64,000 nt of DNA, taken from positions 32,001 through 96,000 of IMG/VR virus record IMGVR_UViG_2920951204_000001; one strand, given 5' to 3'. Positions 73 through 38,400 of the stretch are shown here, piece after piece (the first letter of the stretch is position 1; each line of letters opens with the position of its first letter). The translations under genes and the position numbers were made by a program. This stretch comes from a virus. Its lineage: Duplodnaviria; Caudoviricetes. The notes beneath the pieces were generated by a model that saw only the letters and a program-made list of their open reading frames with translations, was not told the DNA's origin and did not search any database.

Positions 73-273
73 GTGAACCCAATTTACAACGAGTATCTTA
101 AATTCTTGCGAGATACAACCAAACAGCCATTTGAAGATCTGAAAGAAGGCTACTTTTGGCTTGATAAATCCATTATTAAAGGATTTGATAAGCAAGGAAA
201 TGAACATAAATTCTATCGAGTGAAGATTGAAAATTCGCTTGAAAGATTGGATTCTTGTGTTTTTAACCTTTAA
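73..273 (+). pseudogene. Probable N-terminal gene fragment in inverted orientation, cut at a palindromic junction site
   Basis: Protein-like 66 aa ORF opposite to its neighbours; runs into site TTGAAA-GATTGG-ATTCTT (239-256) and stops 17 nt later. Confidence 0.45.
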
Positions 274-501
274 TGTTTAAACAAAATGATTAATATCCAA
301 TTTTTTTACTTTGTAAATTGCTTTTAAACGAAATAAATATGATGGATTCCTGCTCAGAAAATCTTTCACTTCGTCTTCTGTATTAAAATCATATTTTACA
401 TTGTCCCAACTATCAGTATCAGCAGATTCTCCTAACCCATTATATTTATGTCCAATTACAATATAATTCCTATAATCATCCATGTTTTTACCTCCAATTT
501 A

Positions 502-978: not shown

Positions 979-1026
979 TTAATCACCTCTTTTCAATAAT
1001 CCAAGGATATGTTGCTTCTTGTGAAG

Positions 1027-3243
1027 TTACTTATAATTCATTCTTCTCTCAACTTCCTTATCATTTTCTTCATCATTAAAATATTTATAGGCAAGTGTCA
1101 TAGGATAATTTGAATCTTTTGCTCTATCCCACATCATAAATTCGCACCAGTTCGGCTCTTTATATTCTTCTTTATTATCATTACACCAACTTGGATTTTC
1201 AAATAATCCATCGAAAACGCTTTTCCAAGAATATTTCTTCCTCTGAATATTTCTATCTTTGATAACAGTTGACTTATCATATCCTTTGATTTCTACAAGA
1301 ATATCTTCACAGCCTACTCTTTTACAAAGTCGTACAAACCATTTCATAAATTCTCTGTAAGTCTGTTCAAATTCTCTGTCTCTTAAAGCTGCGTTTACAA
1401 CAAGGATATATTCGTCCTGTGTTTGTAACCATCCTCTACTACGACTCTTACATCCGTATCTATCTACTAAATTGTTTGTCACTTCGCCGAATTCATCGCA
1501 TGAACATGAACTGTTATAACCATTTTTCTGAATGATATATGTATTCATGTCACCTTCAGAACCTGTTACTCTTGGCAGATGATTTAGCACTGTTTCAAGA
1601 ATATATCTCTTCTCAGGCTGTGTTCTACCCATAGGACGAACTATTATTGTACCGTTGATATAAGTCCAATACGACATTTTTTCTTACCTCCTTGTTTTTA
1701 TATTCTCTCTTTGTAACCAAATGAAACCTGAAATTACTTGCTGTTGCAAAGTTCAACTTTATAGTCATCCTTTACATCAATAGTTACTTCTCTCTGAAAT
1801 TTTCCTTCCTTATTATAAAGGGATAAATAATACCTGTTGCCACGTTGCTCTAAAACAACATCCTCATTCTCGAATAGTTCAACTCGTTTCTGTTTCTGTA
1901 CTGATTTATTCTCTTGTTTATCTAAAAACATTTTTACAACATCTAAAGATACAGGATATATTTCTTCAAGAATACATGAAATGTCGTTATCTAATTTGTC
2001 ATTAATCGTATGTTTATCAACCGCTCTAATAACATCGTCTTCAAATAATAATCTATTTGCCACTTTAATATTCTCCTTTCCACTCATCCAACTCATAGAA
2101 GTCATCTATCTGGTAATCCAACTTTCTAACTTGTTTTCTCAGCTCATAATCTTCTTTCTTACTATCTGTTGTCTGGCACTTCTTCCATAATTCATCACGC
2201 TGCTTAGTTAATTCTTTATATTTATCAGACACATCAATCTCTTTTACAACTGAAATTCCAATCTTCTCTCCACAGTGAGGGCAGAACCGAATAGGATAAT
2301 TGTCAGTCTGTTCCCATTCATCTTCGTATGATGTAATAACTTCTGTATGAGAAGTACAGAAATGAGGAATAGGAATACCTTCATCTTTATATTCTCCACC
2401 AATGTCGTTTATATCTTCACCTGTAAATACAATAGCTTTATCATTCTGAATTTCATCACAACAATATGTAAATGGTTTGTACTTGTATGAATGAGTATCA
2501 TTAAATTTCAATTTGATTAATTCTATCTTCATTTCTTTATTCTCCTAACAAAATTCATTCCACCAATCAAAAATTTTATGGATATACTGATAACCATTAT
2601 GCAACTCACCTTTATATCTGCGTATTTTCCTATTAGATAACTGTTTCAAATATTTGCTTTTCTTACCACGATACAATCTTTGATAATATGGCTTTGGATT
2701 TTTAACATAACCAACACCCTTAATCCATATTTCATCCACATATCTAACAGGCGTTGGATAATAACCACCAACAGTTTCATATAAATATTTGAGATGATTT
2801 TGATGTTTTAAATATCTCTCACGTTTATTTATCCTCTTTTTCTTAGAATGATTCTTATAATTTTTTTCGTCTTGTTCATACCAATCACTGCAATGACCAA
2901 AAGAATAAACTTTGCCACCAACTTTATCGCACCAAATACAATTTTCAATATCTTCTTTATCAATATATGATTTATATTTTTCAAAGTCTTCACACCCATA
3001 AGGGCAATCTCTACATCTCATCAAATTACCTCTTGTATTTTATTCTCCTAATTCCCTACCGCACCAAGGACAATACAAAATATATATTTTCTGATGAACA
3101 AATCCATCATCATACTCATCCCATTCAGATGTTTCAATATCCAAATAATGTTCATTTGTTAATGGATCTACACATATTTGACTGTCAGGTGAGTCATGAT
3201 TACAACGGTTACACATACAGTTACCTCGCTTTATCACATTCAT
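1027..3243 (-). other. Cluster of five short phage hypothetical genes, several Cys-rich (CxxC)
   Basis: ORFs 1027-1677, 1734-2105, 2065-2532, 2545-3024, 3040-3243, tightly packed. Confidence 0.7.
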
Positions 3244-4111
3244 TGAAATCTAAAAGCATCTTATACTTATATTCCCCAAATTTTTCTTTCCAACGCTGCC
3301 TTGCTTTATCAGTATCCCAACCAAAAGGCATCATATGATAGTTGATAAGAAAACATATGTCACCAATATCTTCATAAAATATACCTGATAGATTCTCTAA
3401 AATTAAATAGGAACCGATTGCATGATGTTCATGGTAATGAGCTATGCCATTCTCATCAAATGTTTGACAATACATTTTTCCAAAATCGTGTAATAATGCA
3501 GCTATATTATATTTTGCTGGATAGCATTTACTACTAAATAACTCATATGTATGAAATGAGTGATTATATAAATTCATAGTATGATGAGGGTTTTTCTGAT
3601 CAAACCCTTCCATCATAGAAAACATTTCTCCAAGAGTTAAACGATTCTCTTTATGAAATACATTTATCTGAATCTCATCAAATTTTTCTTCGTAAAATGG
3701 GATCTGAAATCTTCTAATCTGTTTATTCAATACTTCATTAGGAACAGGATGCTCACGATTTTTATTATCAATCTTACACTGTTCAAATGGCTTTGGAATA
3801 ATTACACAAACCTTATGTACTTCAAGACCATTCACTTTCATCATAATTGCTCTACGAGATTTCATAGTCAGATTAGTTGCATCAGCAATCACATTCTTTT
3901 TATTCTCTAAATTCTTGCGAATTCTATCGTGAAAAATCTTAAACACTTCTTCGTTATGTTCTTGATCTTCGTAATTACCAGTTAATTCTTCACGAATTGC
4001 ATCTGATGATACAATTATTGTATTTGAATTCTCATTGGCAATCTGAGTGGCAATAGTTGATTTGCCACTACCACTCAAACCACACATAATCCATAGTGTA
4101 GGTTTATTCAT
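3221..4111 (-). CDS. Polynucleotide kinase (AAA_33 P-loop) fused to HD domain
   Basis: GLSGSGKST Walker A, SSDAIR, DATN motifs; C-terminal H...LLHDFGK HD motif. Confidence 0.85.
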   Translation of the reverse strand: MNKPTLWIMCGLSGSGKSTIATQIANENSNTIIVSSDAIREELTGNYEDQEHNEEVFKIFHDRIRKNLENKKNVIADATNLTMKSRRAIMMKVNGLEVHKVCVIIPKPFEQCKIDNKNREHPVPNEVLNKQIRRFQIPFYEEKFDEIQINVFHKENRLTLGEMFSMMEGFDQKNPHHTMNLYNHSFHTYELFSSKCYPAKYNIAALLHDFGKMYCQTFDENGIAHYHEHHAIGSYLILENLSGIFYEDIGDICFLINYHMMPFGWDTDKARQRWKEKFGEYKYKMLLDFNECDKAR

Positions 4112-4120
4112 AAATAACTC

Positions 4121-5284
4121 CTATCCGTTATGCTTTAATAAATACTCACGACTTACATTTTTAAAACTCTGCTGCCCATCAATACTGCGATATACAAATC
4201 CCTCTCTCTTAACCTTTGGATTTAATTCACTATATCCATCAGCTTCAAGTTTCATCTCTTCCATAGTCTTAGGTAGCTCATAAGCCGTATCAATAATTGG
4301 CACACTTGTTAATCCATGACTCTTACAGAAAGCAGCCATTTCTACAGTTCCAAGTCTTGTACCATCAATAATCAGATTGAATACAAATAACTTATTCTCC
4401 GTAAATTTATATGGATTGCCCTGAACCGAGCCAACGCCTTCACCTTGTAACACAACTCTGTTATAGTTATTTTCTGTTGCAAACTGTGTAAGAATTTTTT
4501 CAATGTCATATTTATCAGCCAATTCCCAATAAATATTTGACTCATGATAACAAGCCTGTTCTCTATCAGCTTGTCTTACATTTCTACTGCATACAATAAA
4601 ATCAAATTTGTTCTTGCCCTTCTTTAATCTATCAACTGCAAATGTACAGCTTGTGCCATCGCATTTCTCAGTCTTAATCCACTTTTCGGTACTCTGAAGA
4701 TAAAATGGTGCATTCTCAATTCTCGTCTCATCTGTTTTGACAATCCAATCTGGGAACTTCTTTGGATTATCTTTCTTGCGACCAAACAATAAAAACATAA
4801 TCTTACGACCAATGCTATATCTCATAATCCTTCTTACAATTGGGTTAGCGAATAACTTTGGTCTACGCTTTGCCATTGACTTATATTTAGCATTTGGATC
4901 AACCTTATTGGTCTTTCTTGCAGTATCCTCTTCAGAAGCATATGTAATCTTCAAAGCTTCTGTAACATCATCACCAATATTTCTATCATGTAATTCTGGG
5001 AAAAGTGATAATGGTAAGGCTAATCCCTGGCTAATTACCTTGAACTTGCCAAGTTTCATAGTCTTAACTTTGAATTTCTTATTTGCCAAAAATGCAAACC
5101 TCTCATCTGTTTCGGGACACTTGCTATCAATTTCAATATAAACAGCCATATCTCCTACATTAAACTCACCCTTCTTAGCGATACAAACCCATCCTAAAAC
5201 TCCAATGAGTTCAATATTATCAGCTCCTTCAATCGGTCTAATCCACTCAATCTTTTCTACATGTGCTAATGCTCTTTCTGCCAT
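4121..5284 (-). CDS. ATP-dependent RNA ligase (Rnl2/DRB0094-like)
   Basis: N-terminal IEGADNIE OB-like domain; motif I TEKCDGTS, LQGE, FVFN, REGFV, SFK. Confidence 0.85.
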   Translation of the reverse strand: MAERALAHVEKIEWIRPIEGADNIELIGVLGWVCIAKKGEFNVGDMAVYIEIDSKCPETDERFAFLANKKFKVKTMKLGKFKVISQGLALPLSLFPELHDRNIGDDVTEALKITYASEEDTARKTNKVDPNAKYKSMAKRRPKLFANPIVRRIMRYSIGRKIMFLLFGRKKDNPKKFPDWIVKTDETRIENAPFYLQSTEKWIKTEKCDGTSCTFAVDRLKKGKNKFDFIVCSRNVRQADREQACYHESNIYWELADKYDIEKILTQFATENNYNRVVLQGEGVGSVQGNPYKFTENKLFVFNLIIDGTRLGTVEMAAFCKSHGLTSVPIIDTAYELPKTMEEMKLEADGYSELNPKVKREGFVYRSIDGQQSFKNVSREYLLKHNG

Positions 5285-5386
5285 TTCAGTACCTCTCTTT
5301 CTATTTTCTATGTATTTATTCTCTCTTTATCGTTCAAAAATTCGAAGGAAATGCTTCTTTCTAAGATTGTTTATTACTGGCTTTTT

Positions 5387-7346
5387 TCAAAAAATTTCCA
5401 TATCATCAACATCTTTATCAGTAAGTTTTTTTAGTTTTTCATAACATTTTTCTGTCATCATAAGTGTATTATTCACTAGCAGTATTTTCGTGTTATCTGG
5501 TACAATTTTCATGCCGTATCTTTTCAACCACTTCTTATTAATACGTTTTTTCTTATGGTTTCTTCTTTGAACATCTTTAGTGATATACTCAGTTATGAGG
5601 ATTTTATAACCTAACCCTTCGATTGTTTGTATATTCATTTATTCTCCCATCTGATTTATAATACTTTTCTACATAACTTCCAAATGGTATTCTTCAACAT
5701 ATTTTCTTCTCTTCCAAAACTTCCACCAAGGAAATTTTACATATTTTATTTCTACAACTCGAAATATCTTATCATCATTTTTATCTCTATCTAACCTTAA
5801 AGCAGGTGAACCAAACATTGCTTCGGCTAATTCGTTAATAGAAATATGTTCTCCAAGTTTGTATTCCTGTTTGTGTGGTTGTAGAGGATAATAAGAAATC
5901 ACGTCATGCTGTTGTAATTCATATGATCTCATACTATTGTTCTCCATTCTTCACTACATCAAATTTAATTGGTAACATAGCTGTAAATCTACTCTTCATC
6001 CAAGGTTTTTCTTTTGTTGCAAATTCATCACCAAATTCTTCTGCTAATACAAAATCTCCGACAGTATAGATGATAGAATATCCGGTTAAATCTTTTGGAA
6101 TCTCCTTATTTACATTACAGGCTTTAAGATGAACCATTTTATCTATGCACTCACCCATTAAATCTTGAAAGAATACAAACGTTCCATCACAATTGCAACG
6201 CTGCATTGTAAAATATTCAAAATCTGCATTTGGATTACGCTTGATAATTACATTAAAATAAGGTTTGTCGCCTTTAAGATAAGGAATATCTACTAAAATT
6301 GTTCCATCTTTGGCGCAAGTAACAACCGTAAATAACTCTCGTATATCCTGTTCAATCATGGATTCATATTTATTATTCTCCATACCATTGCACTGACCTG
6401 ATGCAATTCGTTCTTTTACAAATTCTAATGATTTACCCATTGCTATTCTCCTGTTTCTACTCGATCTTCATTCAACAAACCAAATTTTCGTAAATAATAC
6501 TGTTTGGTTTTATCATCAACTCTACAATAAAAATTATGTCTTCCTGATTTCTGTAGAGATAATGTGTTTATATTAAGTTCTGCGTCCATAATAATCAGCA
6601 ATTCATTTAATGTAATATCATAACAATGAAATGTCTCGCCTATCAGAAGCTTATAGTATTTTTTCTCTAATTTTGTTATTTTTCTCACCTACTTTCATGA
6701 CCGCAAGAAACGTGGTTTTACTTAGTTTTATTTTTTAAAACATCATCAATTTGTTTCATTAGAAACTTCTTTGTAGTTGCGTGATAATCAGCGCATCCTG
6801 TTTGCATATCAACAGCTTCCCACCATACACAATGATCAGGTTCATGATAACCAAAATTACTAATTTTGTACCCTTTATACTCGTAGATACCTTTTGATAT
6901 TTTTGTTGCTCCCATGCTTAATCCTCCAAACAACTTTTAAATGAAACCAAAATTTCTTGTTAGTTTTTATCCAAGTAAACTATATTATCTACATTATAAT
7001 GAAATCCACCTATCTCTCCGTTAAAACTACCTTTGACATACCATACATAAGGACTGATACCTTCATTCATTTTATCTGCAAGTTCATCAGCTTTTCTTTG
7101 ATGTTCATCGGCTTCATTTTGCATAGATAATTTTTGAGAATCCCATATAAGATTTGGAATTGTATCTACACACTTTCTATACATTTCAGACTCTTTTATA
7201 TATTCTCTTATCACTTTTGTCATTTTGGGAATATTGTCTTTTAATATCGGCTCATTGCTAAGTTCATATGGATATAGGATTAAAACTCTCTTGTCCATAT
7301 ATTCTGTAGATATTAACTCCTGTACACAAAACTGTGGTTTTACCAA
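5387..7346 (-). other. Six short phage hypothetical genes
   Basis: ORFs 5387-5638, 5669-5947, 5934-6440, 6443-6688, 6718-6933, 6960-7346. Confidence 0.65.
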
Positions 7347-7365
7347 ATTGTCACCTCCCAGATAT

Positions 7366-8100
7366 TTATTCTCTTATTTCAAACAACTTTTCTACTGCTT
7401 TAACTCGTTTTGTATTGTCAATTGTTCTTTTGACTTCCTGTTGCCAAATACATTCCCATTCTGAAGGAGCTTCATGCTCACTGACTAAGACAATATTCCT
7501 TTCACTCATCTTCTCAGCCCAATTCCAAAATCTGTCATAATCAAAGTTCTTACTTGATCCATATTGTTTTGTATTTTTGTATGGAATATCACAGTAAAAC
7601 AAGCAGTCAATTCTATCAGAATATAACTCTTCATAATCTCCACATTGGAACTGAATATCCTGCAATCGTGGAATCTGTTCTAACAAATTCCTTTTAGCTT
7701 CATCGTAGTAATTTCTTTCAGTATCAGCTTTTGTATGAACAATACCTGCATATCCACCATCAAAGAAGCGTCCATTATAACTCGCAAGAAAGCCAACTGC
7801 TCCAATATACCAATCAGGATATGTATTTAATTTCTTGTTAAAGCACTCTCTTACATCTGAGTAATGTTCTTTTGTAATAAATTCTGGGAGATTTTGAATC
7901 TGATTTAGATTTTTGAACATTTCGATAAGATACTTATGATTATCAGATGCGATTTTTATGTCACACTGAACTTTGTCGATTACATTACAACCACCACAAA
8001 ATGGCTCTATATATGTTTTGATATTATAATCTCGCAATCTTTCTTGAATAATTGGTAAAATGTTATCAACTATACGAGATTTTGAACCCATATATTTCAT
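7366..8100 (-). CDS. Dam-like (D12) N6-adenine DNA methyltransferase
   Basis: YMGSK, EPFCGG SAM-binding motif, catalytic YCDIPY (DPPY variant). Confidence 0.85.
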   Translation of the reverse strand: MKYMGSKSRIVDNILPIIQERLRDYNIKTYIEPFCGGCNVIDKVQCDIKIASDNHKYLIEMFKNLNQIQNLPEFITKEHYSDVRECFNKKLNTYPDWYIGAVGFLASYNGRFFDGGYAGIVHTKADTERNYYDEAKRNLLEQIPRLQDIQFQCGDYEELYSDRIDCLFYCDIPYKNTKQYGSSKNFDYDRFWNWAEKMSERNIVLVSEHEAPSEWECIWQQEVKRTIDNTKRVKAVEKLFEIRE

Positions 8101-8153: not shown

Positions 8154-8168
8154 CATTATTATTGCTTA

Positions 8169-9176: not shown

Positions 9177-9907
9177 TGTATTATTCTCTTAATTATTGTG
9201 ATTTTTGAGCGACTTGCTCTTAGATTTTCCTATGAAACTTCGGTTTACTTTTGTTTATGATTATCTTAAGTATTCTGTTGGAGACGAACCAATTACTAAC
9301 GATCCTAATCCCCATTGATTACAACATACACAATAACTCATAAATTCTTGTACCATATCATTGGTAATAATATAAAAATCATTCGTCTCTATCGCTTTGT
9401 CTAAAATCCAAAAACATACTTCATAAATTGATTTTGTAATATCCCCATATTTAAATTGTTTATCATATCTGAATGTGAGACTTATATTTTTATAAACAGA
9501 ACCAAAAGCTCCATCATCAACTCTAAACGGAATAGAATAAATCATCTTAATTTCAGATAAAGGTTGTTCTTTTATGTCTGAAATTTTATTCTGAACCATT
9601 TCTCTAATACCATTTTTAGGAATAATTACTTGTCCCCACGAAAATTCAACCTTATCTCGACCTTTATTGAACGGATAATTATCTTTTCTTTCAAATTCAT
9701 GATTAAAACTCAAAAATTTTAATATATCTTGAAACGAATAATATTTTAATTCTTTATCCATTTTATTTTCTCCTTTATTAATTCAAAATCTTACTCAACT
9801 TCTTCACAACTTCTTCGCACAATCTATACAAATAAGTTTTCTCAAATTCTATTTTAAAATTGCCAACAGCCTGTCTATATTGCTGACGTAATTTGTTGTC
9901 TATCATG

Positions 9908-10189: not shown

Positions 10190-11150
10190 ATGATTTATTC
10201 ACCCAACTCTTTCAATGCATTAACAAGTTCTGCAAGTCTTGGATTTTCAGGATGCTCCTTTGCCATCTTTTCATATAAAGCAATATTATTCATCTTTTCA
10301 ATCTCAGACTTTAGCTCCTTCTCAATAGAAGCTTTCTGCTTTGCAATTTCTTTCTGACGATTTTCCTCATCAATTCTTGCATTGTATGCGTTCATATTAA
10401 CTACGCCAACAACCTGAGCTGTCACACCTTTACCATATTCTTCGACTGCCTTAATTTCTTTTAAAATTCCAAGAACTCTATTGTCTTTTCCTCTCGCATT
10501 TACAATCAGATATAATGGATGATTGGTATCATACTTAACAATTTCATTAATATCTTCATCATATAAAGCAAATCCATAATCCTTCTTGTTGTAATCATCT
10601 ACCAAATTTACAATCGCCACTTTATTAAATCCTGTCATTTTATTATCCTCACTTTCATCTCTAACAATATCTAATTCACTTCTCTTGAACCAATATAATC
10701 CATTGGAACTTGCTGCATTGTACATTCCATCAATCTGAACCGCTATTGATCCACTTGTAGTTTTAATAACTTGTCCATATAAACCAATAATATTTTCTTC
10801 TCTGTATTTTCTTTTATCAGTATATGTAACTTTTACTCGTTGATTTTGATATTCTTCATAATCGTATATCTTGCTCATCGCATCACCTCCTGCTAATATA
10901 TTCTCCAAAGGAAATCTATGATTCATTAGTTTTCTACATTTTTTAACACATGCCATAATTTATTAGTCGTGTCGTTTTCATCGTCATCGACCACCACAAA
11001 CCCTTTATTTTCAAGGGTTTCAACGACCTCTTTTGCGTCTTTTCCATAATATGCCTTAATTTCAGCTATTTTCTTTAATTTTGCCATTTTTACCTCTTTT
11101 CTAACCCAATGAAATTCCGCTTTCATGCGAACTTCATGTTATGTTATTCT

Positions 11151-11654
11151 CTACTCAACCTTCTTCTCAACCACAACAATTGTGTCATTGTGCCAACCGC
11201 CATGAGGAACAAGTAAAATCTCCTGAATCTCAAAGCCGTACTTTTTACCAATGCCACCGCTATTCCAACTGCAAGTGATTACAATACCATCTTTTTTAAC
11301 AATTCTTCCTATTTGTTCTTTCTGCTTTGACCAATAGGAAGCCTGTGTTGTCTGCATATTTACTGTCTGTCCAAGATTTTTGTAACATTCGCTTACCTGT
11401 CGTGGCGAGTATGGTGGATCGTACAACACGGTATCTACTGAGTTATCATCGAATATCTTTAAGAAATCCAGTGCGTCCATATGATAATCAGTATCATACT
11501 GTGTGTCTAAATCATTCGTTACTGTTGCCAGCTTATTACTATTTGCAAATGGATCAACAATCTTACCTATTGCATATTTCTCAATCAGTTCCTTGATTGG
11601 TTTAATTGAAAATGTGTTACTATTTGGCATCTGCCAGACTCTATTTATTATCAT
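11151..11654 (-). CDS. Small adenine-specific DNA methyltransferase
   Basis: VDPFA and LYDPPYS motifs. Confidence 0.75.
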   Translation of the reverse strand: MIINRVWQMPNSNTFSIKPIKELIEKYAIGKIVDPFANSNKLATVTNDLDTQYDTDYHMDALDFLKIFDDNSVDTVLYDPPYSPRQVSECYKNLGQTVNMQTTQASYWSKQKEQIGRIVKKDGIVITCSWNSGGIGKKYGFEIQEILLVPHGGWHNDTIVVVEKKVE

Positions 11655-13454: not shown

Positions 13455-13567
13455 ATTTCACCTCCAAAATTCCTGAAGAAATGTGCGTTTCTTTCTAATG
13501 TAAAATATATACCATATATAGTATATATCGCTTATTTTTAATACTATATATGGTATATTTGTAACAA

Positions 13568-25545: not shown

Positions 25546-25549
25546 AATA

Positions 25550-26340: not shown

Positions 26341-27555
26341 TTACGCTCTCAGCATAGCCAAGTTAATAATTGTTGGGTGTGAACCTGCACCCTCTATTCC
26401 TTTGCTAAACGCATCAGGAATTACCTTCTTTAATATTTGATATGCTCCATTTACATCTGCATTTATCTTCTTTCCGCAATCTGCAATGAATAATCCTCTA
26501 TGAACTCTGCGTTCCTTATTATAATTCTCTTTTACAGGATCTTCATTATCAAGAAATGATGTTCCAGAAGTACATGCTTCCTCATTTTCTATAAATCTAA
26601 TTCCATTATTCTCACATTTATATGCAAGCATCTGGATAAATAGTTCATAAGGAATATAAGTAAAATTCTGCATACCTTGTTTCTTTTGTTTCCATTCATC
26701 GTTGTGTCCTACAATCAATGTGTCAATTTCATATAAGACACACCAATCAACTACATACTTACTTATACAATGCATCTGATATTTAATCATTTCATATCGC
26801 TTGTCTGTAAGTTTCTGTAACTTGTTCGACCAATCTTTTCCGTTGACTTTCTTCAACTCTGACTGAATATTTGCTTTCTGTTTATTGTAAAACCGATTAA
26901 TTGACTTAATAACTCCACCTTTAACAGCTATTGGATTTTCACCAATGTTGTTTACCATAGTTATGAAATTATCAACTCCAATATCAATGGCAGCTACTCT
27001 TTCAGAAGTTTCTGAAATGTCTGGCACTTCGATTTCATAGACGATTTCCATTACATACTTTTTACATCTAGGAATGAATCTGCATTGTAATATTCTTTCT
27101 TGTGCATTTGTCTTAAACATATTGTTGTATGGTTTAAATGGCTTCCATGCAAAATATACATATCCATCTTTCAATTTCACTTTGTTGCTATCAAGAGATA
27201 GTAAGAATCTTCCGTCTTTATCTTTATATTTTGGAATCTTTGGTCTACCTAAATATTTACTAGGATTTTTCTTCCAATCCTTAATTGCCTTGAAAAATGC
27301 TTTCCAATTTTTATCAAGTATCCTTAAAGTTCCTTGACCTGTATTATTTCCAATATCTTTGTATGGCTCTGACTCTTTTACAAGTTGAAATAATTGATTA
27401 TATTTAATCCAGTTTCCATTATTTATAAATTCTTGACGAATAATATAATTCGCATAGTTGTATAAATTCTTTGACTTGAAACACATTTCATCAACAAATT
27501 TATAAAAATCAGTTCCATACTTTATATTATGCTGTTCACATCTTGTTATTTTCGT
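26341..27555 (-). CDS. tnpB: TnpB-family nuclease with rearranged RuvC Glu, likely ACG start
   Basis: SKNLYN, AIDIG, IVGHN, EEACTS, NADVNG; frame extends to (T)KITRCEQH after SD AAAGGAGATG. Confidence 0.85.
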   Translation of the reverse strand, partial: TKITRCEQHNIKYGTDFYKFVDEMCFKSKNLYNYANYIIRQEFINNGNWIKYNQLFQLVKESEPYKDIGNNTGQGTLRILDKNWKAFFKAIKDWKKNPSKYLGRPKIPKYKDKDGRFLLSLDSNKVKLKDGYVYFAWKPFKPYNNMFKTNAQERILQCRFIPRCKKYVMEIVYEIEVPDISETSERVAAIDIGVDNFITMVNNIGENPIAVKGGVIKSINRFYNKQKANIQSELKKVNGKDWSNKLQKLTDKRYEMIKYQMHCISKYVVDWCVLYEIDTLIVGHNDEWKQKKQGMQNFTYIPYELFIQMLAYKCENNGIRFIENEEACTSGTSFLDNEDPVKENYNKERRVHRGLFIADCGKKINADVNGAYQILKKVIPDAFSKGIEGAGSHPTIINLAMLRA

Positions 27556-27984: not shown

Positions 27985-28609
27985 TCACAAATCCTCCTTA
28001 CATTTTCCATTATACTCAACATTATTCATTTGTCAATACTTTTTTGGTAGTTTTTAATATCAATTAAATATCAAAAACCAAGTAAATCATTCTTTCATTA
28101 TATCCTTAGTCCTTCGGTAATAAATCTCCTAAAGCATCCTTCCATTCTCCAAACTTCATACTTTACTGTACTTTTATCTTGATATTCAACATAAGCTACA
28201 TTAGTTTCAAATCCTTCTATATCAATTAAATTTACATATCCAATTTGCAAATAATGTTCATCTTTTGGATCAATGCAAATAAGTACGTCTCCTTCATTCA
28301 TAAAATCACCTCCAAAGGAAAGTTAAAGTTCATTAGCTTTCTGTAGTTGCAATATCAATTCTAACTCTGCAATTTCCGTTTTTAATTTCTTCATATTCAA
28401 TAATGCATTAATAGCGTTATCTTCATAATTTGATTGCTCAATATTTTTCATATCAATTCTAAAATATTCTTGTTGATTTCCCAAATCTCGCTTCTTTGCA
28501 GCTAATCGCTGTTCCAATACGTCATTCATATTATTCACTCCTTCCACATGAAAACTTGGTTTCTTGTCACTTTAATATTCTCTGTTTTAATAAGTAATGG
28601 TGCTATAAT

Positions 28610-29472: not shown

Positions 29473-32400
29473 TTAATCTGTTTCCTCTATTCTACCTTCC
29501 AAATCATAAATAACTTCCTGTAACGTTTGCATTCTTACAATAAGCATATTATTAGCATTAGGTGCGTCATCACCATTATCAATGATACATTTCTCACATC
29601 TTTTAATTTCCTTTTCCAATTCACTAATATATTCTCTTATCATACCTTGCACACCAACCAAATCTGGTTGATTTTCGTATTTATATAACTTTTCCAATGG
29701 TATCTGCATAGCATCATTTGCCTCAAAATTAGCTTCAACATACGCATACATTTCTCTTGGCTTTGAAGCAAAATCCCCTAAATTCCATTGTATTTTCTTT
29801 ACTATTTTTTCCATTATATCACCTCAATATTATATTCTCCATCATGTCAGAAACGGAACTGCCTTACGACAATTCCATTCCAAATGAATCTATTATTTCA
29901 TATACAAAAGGAAGCATTGCTGCTCCCTGTTATTTTAAAATTTCGTTTTCTTTTTCATATAATGTTAATAACATTGTTGCCGTCATTCTTCGCATTTTTT
30001 CTGTAGAAGTTAATTTGAATTCGTGTTCCGGATCATTTTTATCCACAAAATTATAATCCTTGTAGATTGTGACTCCTTGTAATTCTTCTGTTACAACTTC
30101 AACAATCATATCTCCACCAAATTCTGCAATGTCCTGTTTTAATTCTTCAATTAAGCACGCACAATCGTAACTTACATTGATTCCTTCATCGTTAATGAAT
30201 CCCATTCTTTATCTCCCTTAATATTTATATTTTCCATTTTCGTCAAAATCATCACATTCAATTTCAATGCGTTCGTCCTCGCCTTCTCTTTCAAAATTTT
30301 GATAATAAGCATTTCCTTTTTGTTCAGAAATCAAAAGCCATAACTCTTCGTCAGTTAAGTCTGGTTTACTATCAATAAATTTTTGAATTTTTTCGTAATC
30401 CACATCTCCATCTTCATTCTGAAATTCTATGTCCCTTTCTGTTTTATTATATTTTTCGAGAATGGTGTGTTCATACACATCGTAATCATAACTATCAATA
30501 ATTTCTTCATTCATAAGCAAATTGAATAATTCATAAAAACTATTTGCTTTATATTTACGTTTCCAAATTCCATTAGTTGATTTGCCACTCCAATATATCG
30601 TACTCATAATTTTCCTCCTAAATTTCTAATTCAAATTGTTTAATAACTTCATCAAGTGTTTTATAACCTTGCCAATCTTTTCCTCTGGTTATCACATTAA
30701 CCGTTGTATACTTGCAACCTTTATGTCTTGCATCTAACTCTGTAGTTAATGTTATCCAATTTCCTGTGTTTCTAGTTTTTTCTTCCAACGCTTTCTTTAC
30801 TTTTTCAAATTTTGTCATATTAATCTACCTTCTTTCTTAATTATTTTTTATCTTTATCACCTTTTTTTATAAAATACTCACCACGAATATATTTACGTTT
30901 AGCATAATCATTGCCATACTTGTTTATATCAAGAAATTGCTGATTTATATCAAATTCTGTATCTTCCGGCTGCTCCGGTTCATGTAGCCAAAAATAAATC
31001 TCCTCGATATGTCCCATAACGTAGCCTACTCCAATACCTAATATTATTGTTATAATCTCTGCCATTCTTTTATTCCTCCTAAAATTTTTTATTTAATTAT
31101 ACTGCCCAATAAGTCCTATAAAAAGGACTTAATACTCATATTTGAAGCATATTTTAATTTATTTTATTATATCATTAAAGTTATATTAAATCTACTCACA
31201 ATCCATTTTAACCTCCTCTCTAAATATGACTTTCAACTCAATTTTTTCTCCCAATATTCATTTGCTTCCTTTGAGCCTCTAATATATAGCGCCACTTGTT
31301 TGCCTTTCTGAAAACACTTAGGACAAAGTTTCCCATGATAAGGCATCTCATCATCAATGGAATACATTCTGTTTCCACAATCAGTGAAAAAGAATGTTCC
31401 ATGTCCGTTCTCTTCTGGTAAAACTCTATGTGTTTTTATATTTTAGTAATACGGTTCATATCCAGATTCCATACTTCCCCGCTTACGTTCAATCGCATAA
31501 CTTTCACCTTCACCAATATATTTACCATCTCTGAAAATATAATTTGCATTTTCTCTAATCCAAGGATATTCTGGATTGTCTTTGTTCTCTTCCAGACATT
31601 CCTGCCAGATTTTTTCAAAATCTTTTCTGCACTGACGTTTGCTTTTTCTTTCAGATGCTACCAACTGATTTCCTGGATAATAATATCCACCTTCAGCCGG
31701 TTCATATATTGGATATTCCTCATAATGACTTATGTATCTCATAGTAAACACCTACCTTTCACTTGAATTTTCCGATTCATTAGTTTTCTTTAATCCAATT
31801 CTTTACATATTCAACAGCCTTATCTTTTTCAAAAGTTCCATGACTATGACCATCTGTATAACACTCTTCTTCAAAAATGCATTCGGCAACGATTGAATCA
31901 AGCTCATGTGCATTTTCTCTTGCGGTATTATATTTATTTAACATATCATCATAACTTTCGTAATAAGAAGATATTGCCATTTCTATTTCATCATCACTAT
32001 AATCATTTAAGTCAACCAAACCTGAGCAAACGACATAATCATTTTCTGAATCATTTGGACATGTATCAATCCAAAGTGCTTGAATAAATTTATATCTTCT
32101 TTCTCCTAATGGTTTACACCACTGCAAATCGTCTGTTTTGTACCATTCGTTTGACATATAATCGACCTCCATTCTGTCAAGAAATCCTCATTTCATTCTA
32201 TTCGGCAGGACATTCAAAACAACAAATGTTAGCCTCTTCATAAGTTAATGTAAATATCATATCCCTTTCTCCGTCTGTATTTTTTAATACAATATAGTCT
32301 TCTTTTACATCGATAATTTTGCAGGTTTCCCCATCCATGCATACTAAACCGCTTGTGGTGTACAAATCGTAATATCCAACATCTCCGTTTTCATTATTTT

Positions 32401-35400
32401 CTGTATTAATCCATCCACATTCAGTACCAAAATTGCTTTCGTATAATGTTTTAATGCTTACAGTTACTTCTTCGCCTGTTATATATCCAATCTTGCAGTT
32501 GCAAATTTCGCTATAATCAAAGCAAGTTCCTGTGTATGATTCAAAGAAGTTATCACATAATCTTTTGATTCTTACATTGTAGTGTTCTCCCTTATAATCA
32601 AAATCAACACGCATATTTTCTAAAAATTCCTTATTTCCATCTGTTAATATTTTTCTTAAATACATAATAATTCCTCCATTCTTCCAAAGAAACTCTTGTT
32701 TACTCTTCTTTTTCTTCAACATCATAAGTACAATCAATTCCGTTGTTATCAAGCCCTGCACTAACTGCTCTTTCTACATCTTCTACTGATGAGTTATCAT
32801 ATATTTCAATAGTTACTGTAATTGTTTTCATATCTTATCACTCCTTTCTTATAATTTTATCTTTTCATAATTGGGAATCATCTGAATAAATTCATCATCA
32901 AATTCGCTTAATCCACCACTTGCAAATACATATTTTGCTACATCTGGAACAAATATCATAAGATTATCAGGATATTTTCTTTCATCCTTAATTGCAAAAT
33001 ATCCTCTTTCTTTTACATCATCGTCTTCAAAGTAATAACCAAAAATCATTTCTATTAAATTTTTCATTGATGTTTCTGGTTCGTATTTCTGTTCTCGGAT
33101 CCATGCAGCCATATAATCGTAATCACACCATTTTTCTTTTGGGTATTTACTATAATCTTTTTCTTCCGTCCATTCACCTGTCCACTGATTTACCATATTA
33201 ATCACTCCTTTCTCTTCAAGAAACAGTTCTTTCAACTGGGTTTAAATTTCTACAAATACACAATATTGTTTATTATCATTCATATATCTTTTTAAATCCT
33301 TTTCTGTTCCATTTCCTGCTTTAAATGCATTTTTAATTCTTTCTTTTGTCCATTTCATAAAATATCCATCTTTAATCGCTTTTTCTCTTGATTCTTTTGT
33401 ATCTCCACCATATACTTCATTTAATATTTTCTTGCTTATTTCACATATCATTATCAATCACCTCATTTTAATCTTCATAAAAACTACGTTTCGCTTGCAT
33501 TAATTCACCATATCTCGCTTCTGATAATATCTGCCATCTACCTAAACTATGATCCGATCTCACATTCTTTGTGAATTTTCTAACGTCATCCCAAAATGTT
33601 TCCATATTGTGCAATGTATTCAATTTCTTAATTTTTGCATAATCTGCATTTTCCATAACATAACTTTCTAACATATCCCTCAACCTCACTTTCTATGCTA
33701 TCTGCCTTGCTATGTCTTCAATGTTTCCATCCATTACAATCACAGCATCTTTGTTGTCAGGATGTTTATCCATAAAATCTCTCAATCCTTCAAACTGCTT
33801 GTTGTCTGCGTTTTCAATCATCTGCCTTACATCTTTATTGTGCAGCTTAATCAGATAAACCTTTTCATAATACTGTTTGAATAACAGATTTTTCTTTTCA
33901 CAATACTGCTTAATCAAATCAATCTGTTTCTGTTCTTCTTCTCTGATTGCTTCAACTCTCGCCTTCTCATTGGCTTCTGCCTGTTCTTTTCGCTTACGAT
34001 TTCCAATCAGATGATTAAATAATGAGTTTGTTTCACACAGATCCTTAATAACTGCATTGTCAATGTCATATGTATCAGGATTATCTTTATCAATCCACCA
34101 TAAAAAATTATCAATCGTCCTATTGAAATTCTCTTCAAAGATACATCTGTTACCAAGATTTCTGTTGTAGATTTCCTCTCCGTTTCGCTCAATCCGTAAT
34201 GATGTATATACATTTTCATCCGGTTTATTATTATAGATAGTCCATTCATATCTATCCTGTCTGCCATATACGGTTAATCCATATGCACTGTATAACTGTT
34301 TCTTTTCATTCTTTAAATATAAAAGTCCCATTCTGTTCTCCTTTCCAATAAATAAGACAGACACACTTGTTTACATCTGCCTTTATATTCTCCAATTTAC
34401 CATTCATCTTCGTCCCAATATTCATCGTCATATTCATCATTGCTCCAACCCTGATAAGGATCACTTAATGATGGGGAAACATCTTTATATTCCATTTTTT
34501 TTGTGGTTATTTTAATTGGATATTTTAAAGTTGTGTTATCTTCATCGTAACAAGCCATTATAATTCCAAGATAACGGAGTTCACAATCAATTTCTTTTCC
34601 TTCGTAATATGCCTGTAAATTTTCAATATCCTTTTCGCATGTGTTACATTTCCATTTCCCTTCTTTAATTTTGTTGATAATCTCCGGTATAATTTCCTTG
34701 TTCCATTCAGGAATCAGATTATATACATCATATTCTCCGAAATCTCCATAGCCATCATAACAACTTTCATAGATTGCTTTTCCATATTTCTCCTGAAATG
34801 GTTTTGGTACAAGTAAATATGTCTCTGCATATACATTATCTAATAACTGTTTATTTGTATCTGAATAAATCCAACTAAATTGTCCCATATTATCACCTTT
34901 TACCTTTCTAAAATTTCACTGTAAATTACAATTTCCTGCTAATCTTCTAATATCCAATTACCAACTTTATTTCCGTTGATATCCATTATGTAACCAGCTT
35001 GATATCCGTATTCAAGTTTTTCTTCAATCTCTTTTAAATTTCGTCTTAACTCATATGCACTTCTATCAAGCTCGCCATCTTCATCTCTATAAGCTGCTCC
35101 ACCTGTTTTAATCTCAATTTTCAACATAACACTCGACCTTCCTTTCAATTCTAAATCTCGTATTTTCTGGATGTATTTCATAAATCAATTTACACCAATT
35201 TTCATCCTTAATACATTCACTCAAATACTTGTTATCAGGCGTAAAATAATATGCCTTATGACCTTCCTTTGGTGAATCCTCTGTTGTATCTTTCCATTTT
35301 GTAATAATCACCATTTCATACTTTTTATTTCCGTCATATAAAGTACCAGCTAAATGAGCTGTATATAATTTGTATTTACTCATATCAATTACCAATCCTT

Positions 35401-38400
35401 TCTCTCCATTTCTTAATTCTTACGGGATAATTCACATTCTCTTTGTATGTTTTTAACTGCACTTTTGCATCTGCTCTGTCTTCACAATTACATTCAATAT
35501 TCCATCCATAACCACAATTTCCTTCGATTGCGTAGCAATCTTTTGTTCTTCTCTTATATGCCATTATCGTAATCCCTCCTCTGTATATTCTGCATAACTA
35601 ATATGCCATCCTTCGTCTTTATGTCTCTCTAACAACTGCTTTAATTCATCATCCGAATATCCAGCTTTCCAACCTACAATATATCCATTCTTATCTCTTA
35701 TACATAATTCCACATCTTTTTTCATATCAATATTCCTCCTCATAAAATTTAATTGTTCTTTCCTTTTCAGCTTCATATTTCGCTTTATCAGTAAACAATG
35801 TGAGATAAATATCTCCCTCTGTATATGTAAACACTGCCATCTGTTCATCTGAATAAGCATAAGAACTATATCCGTCTACCTGAACTAAATCGAATTTGCA
35901 TTTCTTTGCAAACTGGTAACTTAAATCGGACATCCAATGTCCACCTAACATGTAATTACCATTTCTATCTTCTGTCTCTTCCATGAAGTTTACATTTGCA
36001 ATCCGTTTTGTATCTTCATTTAGTGAATATGCGGATAAATCTAAGTCTGCAATTTCATATTCGCTTTCTACTTTCTTCACTCCAAGTTTTCCAATTAATT
36101 CAAAATATTCATTTCTCGGAACATATTTCATACTAATCAACCTGCCTTTCTAATCTCTCCAACTTCTTGTTACTGTGTCATATAAAGCTCCGTTTGCATC
36201 CTGGTATTCATCGTCTTCTGAATATGTGAATACATAGCATTTATGACCATTAATATTTTTTGTTTTTCTTTCACCATATAAGATTGCATATCTTTCTCTG
36301 AAACCTGCACTATCACACATTTCTCTCATTTCTTCATCTCTCTTTGGATTTCCGCAAGCTGCTTGCACACATCCGTATAACCATCCATTCAGATAATCAA
36401 TATTATAACAATACTGTCTCCATGAATCTGAATCATCAGTGAATACATAGAAGCTCTCTCCATCGTCTCCTCTTGTAATCCGTGGCTTGCCAAAGTTTGC
36501 AATAAATGCCTGTAAATTGTCTTTAACAATTTCCATTTCGTTTTTTGTAAAATCATACATAATCATTTCCTCCTTGTAATAAAATAGGCAGCTAGGTATT
36601 TATTCTCCTAACTGCCTTTGCGTTTGCGTTATTTTTGTTTAGTTACTAAATTGAATTAATTCAAGATATTTTCTCTGTAGTTTTTCATTTGTAACTGTTC
36701 TGCCTGTCCGTGTTTCAAGTATATAATTCTTTTTATTTGATATACTTACATCAAATAACCTGTCCCCATTATTAAAATAATAGGTTTTCCCTTGAGTTCT
36801 AACAACTTTTAATCCATATTTCAAATAGTCATTATAATTATCTGCGTCAGCTTTATCTGTAAAATAGATTACTTTATTCTTATCTTTTACTTCATACATT
36901 TATATCATCGCTCCTTCCAAAGAAATCTTAGTTTCAATTGTCGTCTCCATCTTCGATTAATTCTTCGCATTCAGGACAACACAAGCATTTCTCTTTTTCG
37001 TTAAATGCTAAGTCAACTATCCCAAAATTTGTGTCCCATCTATATCCACAAGCGGGACATTCTGATGTGTTTTCATCTATTATAATTTTGTAACCCATAT
37101 TTGCCTCCAATCTTCTAAAGAAATGCGAATTTTATTACCAATTCATCACAGTACAACATTCTTCTGTTTTTAATCCGTTTTCTTTACAAAATCCCTCTGC
37201 TTCTTCCCACGCAGTAAAAGATATAACGTTTGGTTCTTCATCTTCTGTATCATTCCATGTTACATATACCATTTTTATACCTACCTTTCTAATCTAATGA
37301 AACACGCATTTATTTAGTTATATTCTGGTAGTGTTTGCAATTCTTACACTCGCTACATTCACACCTAATTCCCTTATCTGCATTTATTTTGTAAATACAT
37401 TCAGGTTCTTTATCTAATGGCATTTTATACCTCCATTTCCCTTATTATAAGTGACTCTTGTATCAAAATGATATTCTTTTAATTTTGTTTCATCTAATTT
37501 CAATACACCGTAAGCAATCATATCGTTTAATTCATCCATTCTGATAAAACACCCGTTAGAATTGTTTTCAGATACATTAAAATCTGAAGGATACATTCTA
37601 TCCATAATTATTACCTCCTTATAAAATATCCATTTTATGATATTGTCTCCCTCCTTTTACTTAATAAATGCTAAAATGTTATCTTTTTTCCTGCCATATA
37701 ACCGGCAAGGTGTCTCATGTGCTTCTGCATTCTTAATGTCGATTAGTTCAACAGTTTCGATCCAATGCGGATACCTTCTATTACCCTGATTATACGACAC
37801 CTTTAAAGCTAAATATAAGGGTTTACCGGGCTTCCGCTCTCTTGCTTTTCTAATTCCTTCTATAACATTTTTTTCCTTTGCTTCCTGTAAAATTCTACAA
37901 TGTGAATATGGAATATTTTCCACTGATTTTTCCGCCATCTGATTAATTTTTTTATAATCTTTTAATGTTATTGTTTTCATTTTAAAACCTCCTACCATCT
38001 CAATATCTCTTCTTTCCGTTGTATCTGTATAAGTCTTTGAAAATCATTTTCACCCATCAAACAAGCTGCTTTATGTCCCAGTTTTACAATCACAAATAAC
38101 TTTCCATGTCTATAATAGCGATTAATAACTTTGATTTTATTCATTTTTACCTCCTCTTAACTTTTCTATTGTTTGATTTAACTTTCCAATGCCACAAATA
38201 TATTTTTTACCTTCCATAAAAATAGCATAGTGATCAGATTCTCTTTTTACTTCCATGTTTTCATTAATGTATATATGCATTGATTCCACCTCCTTATTTT
38301 TCCTTAACGCTTATAATTACATCATCTGTTATATTGTTTTTTGTTCCGTTGTCGTGTATTTTTAATATGTATGTTTTACCCTTTTTAAATTTTCCACTAT

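Follow-up and report, generated by a model that had tools for sequence, protein, structure and literature searches.

Palindromic sites and recombinase genes

The window, i.e., the whole stretch of 64,000 nt that was analysed, belongs to a large SPbeta-like prophage in a host genome of 2.9 Mb, and the core palindrome GAAA-N6-TTTC lies between many of the early genes of this prophage. The palindrome observation was confirmed, as all 16 example sites of the original prediction, including that at 239, agreed in letters and coordinates. The sites and the two tyrosine recombinase genes are listed below; landmarks are given in gene sense, and G061 to G064 are related phages.

239-256, minus strand: first site, TTGAAA-GATTGG-ATTCTT, one arm mismatch, read from the letters
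5346-5363, minus: strict, centre TGCTTC (plus strand); same centre, colinear, in G061 at 44493
6705-6722, minus: AAGAAA-CGTGGT-TTTACT, one arm mismatch; G062 has a strict copy with this centre at 53552
6941-6958, minus: strict, centre CCAAAA, with ORFs 6960-7346 and 6718-6915 on either side; centre also present in G061, G062, G063 and G064
9232-9249, minus: ATGAAA-CTTCGG-TTTACT, one arm mismatch; membership uncertain, G062 having only a near-identical centre, one base shifted
10909-10926, minus: AGGAAA-TCTATG-ATTCAT, one arm mismatch; strict same-centre copy, colinear, in G061 at 54768
11109-11126, minus: strict, perfect 6-6-6 palindrome, centre TTCCGC, which G062 also has at 60057
11759-11776, minus: strict, centre AAAATA, in a gene-free stretch; same centre in four of four complete relatives
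13476-13493, minus: strict, centre TGTGCG, lying 23 nt ahead of ORF 13275-13454; centre also present in G061 (62801) and G062 (69512)
23460-23477, minus: strict core, the centre containing the ribosome-binding site (RBS) of ORF 22852-23460; doubtful member, absent from the four complete relatives
24805-25545, minus: tyrosine recombinase, catalytic domain only, 246 aa (Pfam PF00589), with R, HxxR and Y motifs
26301-26318, minus: ATGAAA-TCGTCA-ATTCAT, one arm mismatch; same centre, colinear, in G061 and G063
28081-28098, minus: AGTAAA-TCATTC-TTTCAT, one arm mismatch; centre in the motif frame in 19 of 56 loci, within the range of control 6-mers (2-27)
28316-28333, minus: landmark TTTAAC, arms degenerate
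28548-28565, minus: landmark CCAAGT, strict; 15 distinct contexts in relatives
31763-31780, minus: landmark CGGAAA, both arms altered in a matching way (GAAT/ATTC)
32179-32196, minus: landmark TGAGGA, strict; centre shared with relatives
32687-32704, minus: landmark CAAGAG, 5' arm AGTAAA containing the upstream stop codon; same centre behind five different upstream genes
33218-33235, minus: landmark GAACTG, strict; centre shared with relatives
34920-34937, minus: landmark TTGTAA, one arm mismatch; absent from the original prediction
36920-36937, minus: landmark CTAAGA, strict; 25 distinct contexts, the upstream flanks being of at least 15 unrelated kinds
37118-37135, minus: landmark TTCGCA, one arm mismatch; the slot from TTCGCA to CTAAGA has 23 different contents in 33 loci
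37297-37314, minus: landmark TGCGTG, one arm mismatch
59339-60388, plus: Xer-like tyrosine recombinase, 349 aa (Pfam)
61328-61345, plus: possible copy in the plus arm, AGTGAA-TTGCAC-TTTCAT, just after tRNA-Trp; strict TTGCAC copy in a single relative (G064 at 190639), membership uncertain

The copies are located directly after a stop codon, or overlapping it, and directly before the next RBS, as had been described, and this placement was borne out both in the window and in the relatives, where in about 90% of cases the stop codon of the preceding gene falls between -14 and +7 relative to the core. The 5' arm often includes the stop codon of the upstream gene, and the 3' end of the site is 17-27 nt ahead of the start codon, immediately 5' of the RBS. 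The sites indeed bound single genes or small gene groups. The left flank CCA/CTA, from which a polarity had been read, is present but is the complement of a semi-conserved leader, TRG-AAG, preceding the RBS.

Enrichment and spacing

GAAA-N6-TTTC has 16 matches in the window versus 4.1 ± 2.0 in shuffled sequences (shuffle maximum 10), and the excess is confined to the 6-bp spacing, each of the other spacings from 0 to 14 giving 1-6 matches. Thirteen of the 16 fall within bases 1-40000, the minus-strand early/accessory arm. When all 4- and 5-mer palindromes were scanned without bias, GAAA-N6 was the top-ranking one of the minus arm (18 vs. 2.6); the plus arm had nothing comparable. The longer form WWGAAA-N6-TTTCWW occurs 21 times on the prophage contig versus 2-6 times at other spacings, with no excess in the remaining 2.6 Mb of the host genome. 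Among the related phages (1.06 Mb) the N6 excess is family-wide (354 vs. 34-92 at other spacings), and each complete relative has 29-44 N6 sites versus 2-17. The sites are specific to this SPbeta-like phage lineage. The strict matches inside genes (18342, 20771, 21060, 47195 and 54969) are probably due to chance.

Loosened patterns were at chance level (WKRAAA-N6-TTTYMW, 9 vs. 5.6; DAAA-N6-TTTH, 96 vs. 96.6), and membership of the degenerate copies therefore depends solely on a centre shared at the same map position. Those proposed originally (10909, 28316, 31763, 37118, 37297 and others) do not exceed chance by the motif, but they do have the same centre at the same map position in relatives.

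Comparison with related phages

The comparison covered 56 related viral contigs and four complete relatives, which are not independent samples. It showed that the centres are unique per genome and colinear, and that they exceed both the arms and the neighbouring genes in conservation. No centre occurs twice within one locus or genome, and the order of centres is violated in 9 of 517 neighbour pairs. Sites with an exact centre had zero, one or two arm mismatches in 286, 288 and 130 cases, respectively, while sites with exact arms had the exact centre in 286 cases and a centre one change away in 35; in diverged pairs, changes at centre positions 5-9 numbered 0 of 160. The tolerance of non-matching spacers that had been suggested is thus opposite to the trend, the centre being the best-conserved part and behaving as an address.

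Each copy was also shown to be a positional landmark, with slots between copies that hold many unrelated contents. The 14-mer of one site, with its centre, is found in as many as 45 phages, and the genes on either side are unrelated; CTAAGA, CGATGA and CCAAGT were each found in 15-25 different contexts, and of the 35 common centres, 26 have several contexts to the left as well as to the right. When conserved 12-mers with diverse flanks were sought in an unbiased way, mainly these palindrome sites came up. Between the prophage and G061, 19 colinear joints are common over 68 kb, and in 15 of the 18 slots the part that aligns is below 15% of the length.

Homology between relatives starts preferentially at -3 to +1 of a site (156/392) and ends at +12 to +15 (161/394), i.e., a block opens at the 5' arm and closes at the 3' arm, and few starts or ends fall inside the centre. 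The outer arm bases vary with the flank and the centre is unchanged. Junctions with a strict site have 1.30 distinct homology starts versus 0.78 for those without a site, which also serve as mosaic borders. The borders of whole-gene replacements in relatives fall on the sites. Of 106 recent single-gene indels between close relatives, most have 6-32-bp direct repeats and end at an RBS or a start codon, and only eight have a motif-like site at both ends, about the chance number. Recombination between joints of unlike centre has also occurred at times (TGAGGA with CGATGA; locus L030 vs. L054). Judged from these alignments, the comparison supports exchange at the sites and speaks against an integron.

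SPbeta itself carries an analogous element, TAAAA-N6-TTTTA (34 vs. 2), at stop codons in the yop/yoq/yor/yos gene junctions, and in three natural relatives the homology with SPbeta stops exactly at the end of the site at 116415-116430. In laboratory-evolved phi3Ts x SPbeta hybrids, 15 of 16 recombination sites had ordinary long homology (bioRxiv 10.1101/2020.05.06.055103).

Possible function of the sites

The palindromes may best be explained as fixed, addressed crossover joints for slot-by-slot gene swapping, probably via a dimeric site-specific enzyme, a reading to which we give a probability of about 0.5 on purely comparative evidence. Each joint would consist of common arms, (A/T)(A/T)GAAA and TTTC(A/T)(A/T), and a private 6-bp centre. 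Related phages meeting in one cell would swap the gene or genes between joints, slot by slot, and because pairing would be restricted to joints with the same centre, gene order and orientation would be kept. The crossovers would fall inside the AAA-centre-TTT core. The likeliest mechanism could be that a dimeric enzyme recognises both arms and carries out strand exchange over the 6-bp centre, like Cre or Xer, so that identity of the centre would be needed for rejoining. The constant 6-bp centre between inverted arms is indeed the geometry of a strand-exchange site, as was originally recognised. No covariation of the arms was found among the sites, which fits protein recognition of duplex DNA and not an RNA stem.

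Heterospecific lox and FRT variants, engineered for recombinase-mediated cassette exchange and having 13-bp arms and a known enzyme, similarly have inverted arms around an asymmetric 6-8-bp centre. Only lox or FRT sites with the same centre recombine, so that a segment flanked by two different sites can be swapped and is neither deleted nor inverted, and the present sites show the matching pattern of fixed order and varied slots. However, they are natural and not laboratory constructs, with 30-45 different centres per genome, and their arms of only 4-6 bp, compared with 11-13 bp in Cre, Flp and Xer sites, count against a dedicated enzyme.

A cognate enzyme for the sites was not found, nor was any recombinase conserved among the site-sharing phages. 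The recombinase at 24805-25545 has no orthologue in five complete relatives, and that at 59339-60388 has homologues in three of the five, with 28-48% identity. The recombinases of relatives are mutually 22-50% alike and the site arms are invariant nonetheless, for which reason the tyrosine recombinases of these phages appear too diverse for the role. Both recombinases of the window, originally named as the agents, would thus be poor candidates for acting on the sites. A host-encoded enzyme, as in Xer/dif, could account for the absence of a conserved phage recombinase. Xer/dif cores and the pdif modules of Acinetobacter plasmids share the arm-6 bp-arm geometry, and pdif sites also flank small gene modules found in different contexts. 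However, the arms of dif-type sites measure 11 bp and form separate XerC and XerD halves, which the present sites lack, and nothing ties the latter to the host Xer system; to our knowledge, pdif centres are not position-specific addresses.

It is possible, though we regard it only as a tentative alternative, that the joints function in the same way with no dedicated enzyme. The 14-18 identical bases would then be a linker for general or phage-encoded homologous recombination, for single-strand annealing or for copy-choice template switching at a small hairpin, and the common arms would be inherited from duplicated junctions or serve another purpose. This agrees with the lack of a conserved recombinase, with the use of other short conserved patches (RBS, start codon) as break points and the direct repeats at indels, and with the Sak4-like annealing protein, RecJ-like exonuclease and Holliday-junction resolvase encoded by SPbeta; moreover, the crossover position is not resolvable below the identical core. 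A precedent is provided by the promoter-early stem-loops (PeSLs) of T4-type phages (Arbiol et al. 2010, PMC2839356; Comeau et al. 2014, PMC4122927). Like the present sites, PeSLs are short, conserved and intergenic, and they occur where a large phage is variable; the borders at which relatives differ by inserted, deleted or replaced genes lie at these elements, which are regarded as points of exchange. However, PeSLs are composite cassettes of a sigma-70 promoter and a terminator that offer ordinary homology, whereas the present sites are 14-18-bp palindromes with a constant 6-bp private centre in fixed order, containing no promoter or terminator. Homology alone leaves the shared palindromic arms at a fixed 6-bp distance unexplained, as well as the same geometry with other arms (TAAAA/TTTTA) in another lineage, and 14 bases are very short for recombinase-driven homologous exchange.

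It is unlikely that the sites are primarily expression signals, i.e., operators of a dimeric DNA-binding regulator or small mRNA hairpins insulating or gating the next RBS, with which mosaic borders coincide only as conserved intergenic patches. Their constant placement from stop codon to RBS would suit such a role, as would the 4-6-4 geometry with one helical turn between half-sites, which is that of many helix-turn-helix operators; the UUUC arm can pair with downstream GGAG/GGAA in folds, and a sigma-factor-like gene (22213-22836) is conserved in relatives. However, the spacer of a regulator site or the loop of a hairpin should be neither the best-conserved part nor different at every site. 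Covariation is absent from the arms, the hairpin is weak and only about one-fourth of the sites are predicted to form it with high probability, no Rfam family matched, and the host genome has no regulon carrying the motif. An operator like that of MrpR, the recombinase-fold repressor of SPbeta, had been offered as an alternative. This operator, SPBRE (approximately CAAATACAAAWAATATGTATA), is present at roughly 10 promoters (PMC10516654). It resembles the present sites as a dispersed repeat of an SPbeta-type phage and is bound by a tyrosine-recombinase-like protein, but its sequence differs from the 34 TAAAA-N6-TTTTA palindromes of SPbeta, a separate element at stop codons, and the present sites do not adjoin promoters.

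The integron-like array originally proposed, in which cassettes are captured, excised and shuffled by one tyrosine recombinase of the window, using sites whose spacers do not match, is very improbable, even though both recombinases keep their catalytic motifs, single genes are bracketed by sites and sites of unlike centre were joined in a few deletions. Under free shuffling, neither the fixed order of the centres nor their lack of duplication would survive, the recombinases are not conserved among the phages sharing the sites, and only the eight indels mentioned above are two-sited. As with attC sites of IntI, the present sites follow the stop codons of promoterless small genes in one direction. 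However, attC sites are 57-141 bp long, fold single-stranded and travel with the gene, none of which holds for the present sites, whose centre stays with the map position. An integron array is headed by an integrase gene and attI, neither of which holds in the prophage, no integrase being adjacent to the site array.

A chance origin from AT-rich intergenic DNA, stop codons (TGA/TAA then A) and pyrimidine runs before the RBS, in spite of the chance-level loosened patterns and the stop codon often within the 5' arm, is ruled out by the spacing control, with its N6-specific excess, and by the identical, colinear centres shared by dozens of phages.

The palindrome at gene junctions

The palindromic sites at the gene junctions of the minus-strand arm are real. 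Every site quoted in the original prediction reads as stated, and the strict form, GAAA-N6-TTTC with both 4-base arms exact, occurred 16 times in the window vs 4.1 ± 2.0 times in shuffled sequences. The spacing between the arms provided a better control than shuffling: with 0-14 bases between them, 1-6 matches were found at every spacing except 6, and 13 of the 16 N6 matches lay in the minus arm. When every 4- and 5-mer palindrome with a spacing of 2-10 was counted, GAAA-N6 ranked first in the minus arm (18 vs 2.6), and no comparable palindrome family was present in the plus arm. The claimed enrichment at gene junctions was upheld as an excess at N6 only, concentrated in this arm, with the copies placed between a stop codon and the RBS. 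Looser motif definitions gave counts at chance level, and the degenerate copies in the original site list, which have arm mismatches, are therefore accepted only through comparison with relatives, whereas the strict core of that list is itself enriched. No excess of the motif was found in the host genome outside the prophage, so that no host regulon uses it and this candidate was rejected.

In gene sense the consensus is ATGAAA-N6-TTTCAT, and the 3' end of the site, just 5' of the RBS, lies 17-27 nt before the start codon. For about 90% of cases in the relatives, the upstream stop codon falls between -14 and +7 relative to the core, most commonly as a TGA made by T+GAAA. Information content drops to background more than 6 bp from the centre, conservation being limited to a unit of 14-18 bp whose immediate flanks already differ. 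A second palindrome type, (C)ACTATATATAGT(G), adjoins several of the sites in gene-free stretches (about 13495-13530 in the window, and about 57800 and 73600 on host contig C3) and recurs in relatives.

Two small proteins of the arm were used as queries to collect 56 related IMG/VR contigs (loci), 78-98% identical in those proteins. Their 1.06 Mb contained 354 copies of GAAA-N6-TTTC vs 34-92 at other spacings, and five complete relatives (155-211 kb) carried 29-44 copies each vs 2-17 for the control pattern. No excess of this pattern was seen in SPbeta or in Enterocloster phage PMBT24.

Order of the centres and content of the slots

The central finding is that each copy is an ordered landmark, marked by its centre, the six bases between the arms. 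No centre was repeated within a locus and the order of centres was identical everywhere, with 9 order violations among 517 neighbour pairs. The order in the window is TGCGTG (37297), TTCGCA (37118), CTAAGA (36920), TTGTAA (34920), GAACTG (33218), CAAGAG (32687), TGAGGA (32179), CGGAAA (31763), CCAAGT (28548) and TTTAAC (28316). When up to two arm mismatches were allowed in counting the relatives per window centre, control 6-mers reached 2-27 of the 56, and stricter counts were relied on instead.

The genes on either side of a given centre vary. The 155-aa gene at 32198-32665 has five different upstream genes among nine relatives, in all of which the centre CAAGAG upstream of it is constant and homology restarts at the 5' arm; downstream of the same gene the centre (TGAGGA or CGATGA) is kept and the next gene varies. 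For the centres CTAAGA, CGATGA and CCAAGT, the exact 14-mer was found in 15-25 contexts per centre, in which the sequence adjoining either arm is unrelated, and 26 of the 35 centres seen in at least three loci had several contexts on both sides. These sites also headed the list in an unbiased search for 12-mers present in at least eight loci with diverse flanks. Between neighbouring centres, the gene or genes forming a slot were replaced repeatedly: 23 distinct unrelated contents were counted for TTCGCA>CTAAGA in 33 loci, 16 for TGCGTG>TTCGCA in 29, and 14 for CGATGA>CGGAAA in 22. Compared with the complete relative G061, the prophage shares 19 colinear sites over 68 kb; in 15 of the 18 slots the alignment covers <15% of the length, and identity in most 60-nt flanks does not rise above background.

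Borders of homology

Over all locus pairs, 156 of the 392 starts of homology blocks near a strict site fell at -3 to +1 of the core and 161 of 394 ends at +12 to +15, with few inside the centre. The outer arm bases follow the flank and the centre is unchanged, so that the exchange points lie no more than a few bases to either side of the centre. Strict-site junctions had 1.30 distinct starting break points each vs 0.78 for junctions without one, about 1.7 times more, and junctions without a site break at the RBS and start codon.

The original prediction had allowed for recombination that tolerates non-matching spacers. The relatives point the other way, as their centres are unique per locus and better conserved than the arms. 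Sites with an exact centre had 0, 1 and 2 arm mismatches in 286, 288 and 130 cases, respectively; among sites with exact arms the centre was exact in the same 286 and one change off in only 35, part of which is due to chance. Centre positions 5-9 showed 0 changes in 160 in a small and non-independent sample of 32 pairs with homologous but diverged flanks. On this comparative evidence, the centre behaves as would be expected of an address that needs a match between two DNA molecules, unlike the spacer of a regulator site or the loop of a hairpin. The best interpretation of the sites is that they are crossover joints, fixed in place and each with its own address, at which related phages would swap gene slots in register.

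A parallel in SPbeta

A corresponding pattern with other arms, TAAAA-N6-TTTTA, occurs 34 times in the whole SPbeta record (NC_001884.1) vs 2 for the control. Most of them overlap a stop codon in the yop-yot early region or come after one. One of them, 116415-116430, lies inside an annotated stem-loop feature (116406-116431), and the homology of three natural relatives with SPbeta ends exactly at the end of this site. A limited literature search, which is no proof of novelty, found no papers describing these palindromes.

Possible mechanisms

A putative site-specific enzyme working across the 6-bp centre is the most likely mechanism, with a probability of about 0.35-0.5. More tentatively, SPbeta-type phages may carry 30-45 mutually orthogonal recombination sites per genome, with shared arms and private 6-bp centres, and the putative enzyme would use these joints to swap gene slots in register between co-infecting relatives. 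Sites of the lox/FRT type, whose centre decides pairing, are similar in this respect, since the joints likewise have unique centres, a kept order and a centre conserved above the arms, as judged by the comparative test only. Xer/dif and pdif sites share the 6-bp centre between inverted arms, matched here by the enrichment at N=6 only; however, their arms measure 11 bp and form distinct XerC and XerD halves, whereas here information ends 6 bp from the centre. At 4-6 bp, the arms fall short of those in known tyrosine recombinase sites. The window encodes two such enzymes, which had been proposed as the agents:

24805-25545, tyrosine recombinase with intact catalytic motifs
59339-60388, tyrosine recombinase

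Despite the intact motifs of the former, neither is a conserved partner of the sites in five relatives: 24805-25545 has no orthologue in any of them, and 59339-60388 has homologues in three, 28-48% identical. The relatives encode 2-5 tyrosine recombinases each, which are only 22-50% alike. No conserved recombinase was found among the phages sharing the sites, and YopP and YopR of SPbeta are not close to the recombinases of the window. A screen for core genes against four complete relatives returned 7 ORFs only and missed the known-shared YonO, because its coverage filter was too strict, and it therefore offers no basis for excluding a conserved binding protein. By BLAST, the proteins common to the prophage and SPbeta were only YonO, a YonJ-like protein, YorK, YorL, dUTPase and a Bro/Ant protein, among which there was no obvious site binder.

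The main rival, a short-homology or copy-choice mechanism at the joints, is rather unlikely. Several observations nevertheless call for caution about the enzymatic reading. Joints with different centres show occasional recombination through the arms or leader, and the 106 distinct single-gene indels identified among close relatives end mostly at the RBS or start codon, with direct repeats of 6-32 bp. Motif-like sites were present at both ends in 8 of these 106 indels, near chance given that 23% of junctions carry the motif; the sites predicted at indel breakpoints were thus not enriched at both ends of recent gains and losses, which speaks against the excision and insertion of cassettes as the usual way in which genes are gained or lost. 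In laboratory crosses of phi3Ts with SPbeta, 15 of 16 recombination sites were in ordinary homology and one non-homologous junction was described as "following yosA" (bioRxiv 10.1101/2020.05.06.055103); that junction lies near the SPbeta palindrome at 116415.

Gene expression as the primary role of the joints is a weaker rival and improbable, although the joints stand just ahead of the RBS and hairpins could be predicted. Those hairpins are weak, with A/U-rich stems, and were favoured in about 10 of 40 junctions. The reading as an RNA hairpin or translational operator was rejected: complementarity of the pairs -1/+14 and -2/+15 did not exceed chance (z below 1), the bases beside the core being conserved as sequence and not as pairs, and arm variants that keep an RNA stem paired were no commoner than those that break it. 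Structured RNA elements keep pairing by compensating changes; none above chance was seen at the joints, and Rfam gave no match. With half-sites conserved and their spacing fixed but no covariation between them, the data favour a protein of two-fold symmetry reading duplex DNA over an RNA stem. A promoter reading was rejected, as the sites lack a -10/-35 partner and the RBS follows too closely to leave space for one; strong sigma-A-type promoter matches (29316, 28036, 24507 and 40261) and terminator-like sites do not overlap the palindromes, with one exception, a weak terminator-like match of 5 pairs (11131-11116) partly overlapping the site 11109-11126. PeSL elements likewise mark where indels and replacements in variable regions begin and end, but they join a sigma-70-type promoter to a terminator stem-loop, a cassette that the joints do not have.

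The operator alternative of the original prediction, binding of an MrpR-like repressor, gained no support from the model phage. Seven promoters are reported to be bound by MrpR (PMC10516654), and the SPBRE derived from them, CAAATACAAAWAATATGTATA, is a separate element from the SPbeta palindromes, although upstream of aimR it adjoins one of them. Its sequence also differs from the palindrome of the prophage, whose sites are inside operons and not at sigma-A promoters.

The array is not an integron, since attC sites are 57-141 bp long with paired R''/L'' and L'/R' boxes vs the 14-18-bp unit alone, an integron site travels with its gene as a cassette whereas one centre here has many different upstream and downstream genes, and the conserved integrase beside an integron array has no counterpart among the recombinases of these phages; the claim of an integron-like cassette system failed on all three.

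How large temperate phages retain a working gene order despite constant exchange of accessory genes is a long-standing question. To our knowledge, the proposed short boundary sequences of phage modules have rarely been pinned down. The boundaries described here are explicit, countable and ordered, each with an address, and the same design is present at 34 sites in SPbeta, a genetically tractable model phage. If the enzymatic reading is true, the joints would be nature's equivalent of recombinase-mediated cassette exchange and would put the "linker" model of modular phage evolution on a physical footing, and the arm types that distinguish the lineages (TGAAA here, TAAAA in SPbeta) would reflect co-evolving enzymes. 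An enzyme behind the joints would also imply a ready-made family of orthogonal recombination targets. Small, uncharacterised early genes such as those in the slots are the class in which host-takeover and anti-defence genes usually occur, and the rate at which these phages renew that repertoire may thus depend on the joints.

The prophage and its setting

The window maps to 77645-141644 of host contig C3, within a low-GC island of roughly 130 kb (GC about 0.31 vs 0.35). Genes run leftwards to about base 40000 and rightwards beyond. Further features are as follows:

3221-4111 and 4121-5284, minus strand: kinase/HD-domain protein and adjacent RNA ligase with OB fold, an RNA-repair pair like T4 Pnk/Rnl
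7366-8100, minus strand: D12-class N6-adenine DNA methyltransferase
11151-11654, minus strand: methyltransferase-like ORF, weak match
16188-17192, 19516-20523 and 26341-27486, minus strand: three clear TnpB genes (OrfB_IS605 and Cas12f-like TNB)
20699-22207, minus strand: 502-aa protein with a weak, sub-threshold match to the GmrSD N-terminal domain (DUF262, ParB-like), 30-37% identity in four relatives
22213-22836, minus strand: phage sigma-factor-like protein of 207 aa (phrog_1740, E 1e-12; weak Sigma70_r2)
24072-24437, minus strand: MazF/PemK-like toxin gene, kept in four relatives, just 3' of a perfect sigma-A-type promoter (24507-24479)
47012-49528, plus strand: 838-aa YonO-type single-chain RNA polymerase
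53112-54494, plus strand: one weak TnpB candidate

The YonO-type polymerase, in which Pfam gave no match, is 49% identical to homologues in Enterocloster phages, 37% to that of Clostridium phage c-st and 26% to SPbeta yonO. Together with five tRNA genes, the RNA ligase, the kinase/HD protein, a PhoH gene, TnpB and the two tyrosine recombinases, it indicates a large SPbeta-like prophage in a low-GC Firmicute whose genome measures 2.9 Mb. Close DNA relatives were found neither in 60 genomes from its genus, family and order, nor in named genomes, nor, by megablast, among phage records. A 259-bp stretch on another contig of the host (C10:103852-104110) is 89% identical to window 30833-31097 and perhaps belongs to a second related element in the same genome.

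The sigma-like protein is kept at 30-35% identity in four complete relatives, and the phage thus has both a polymerase and a sigma-like factor. The word (A)GAGAATA(A/T)A(A/T)A recurs 5' of many minus-arm genes, e.g., at about 5300, 28580 and 29290, and is a candidate promoter element for this factor; it sometimes forms the -10 box with a TTGACA partner and often stands without one.
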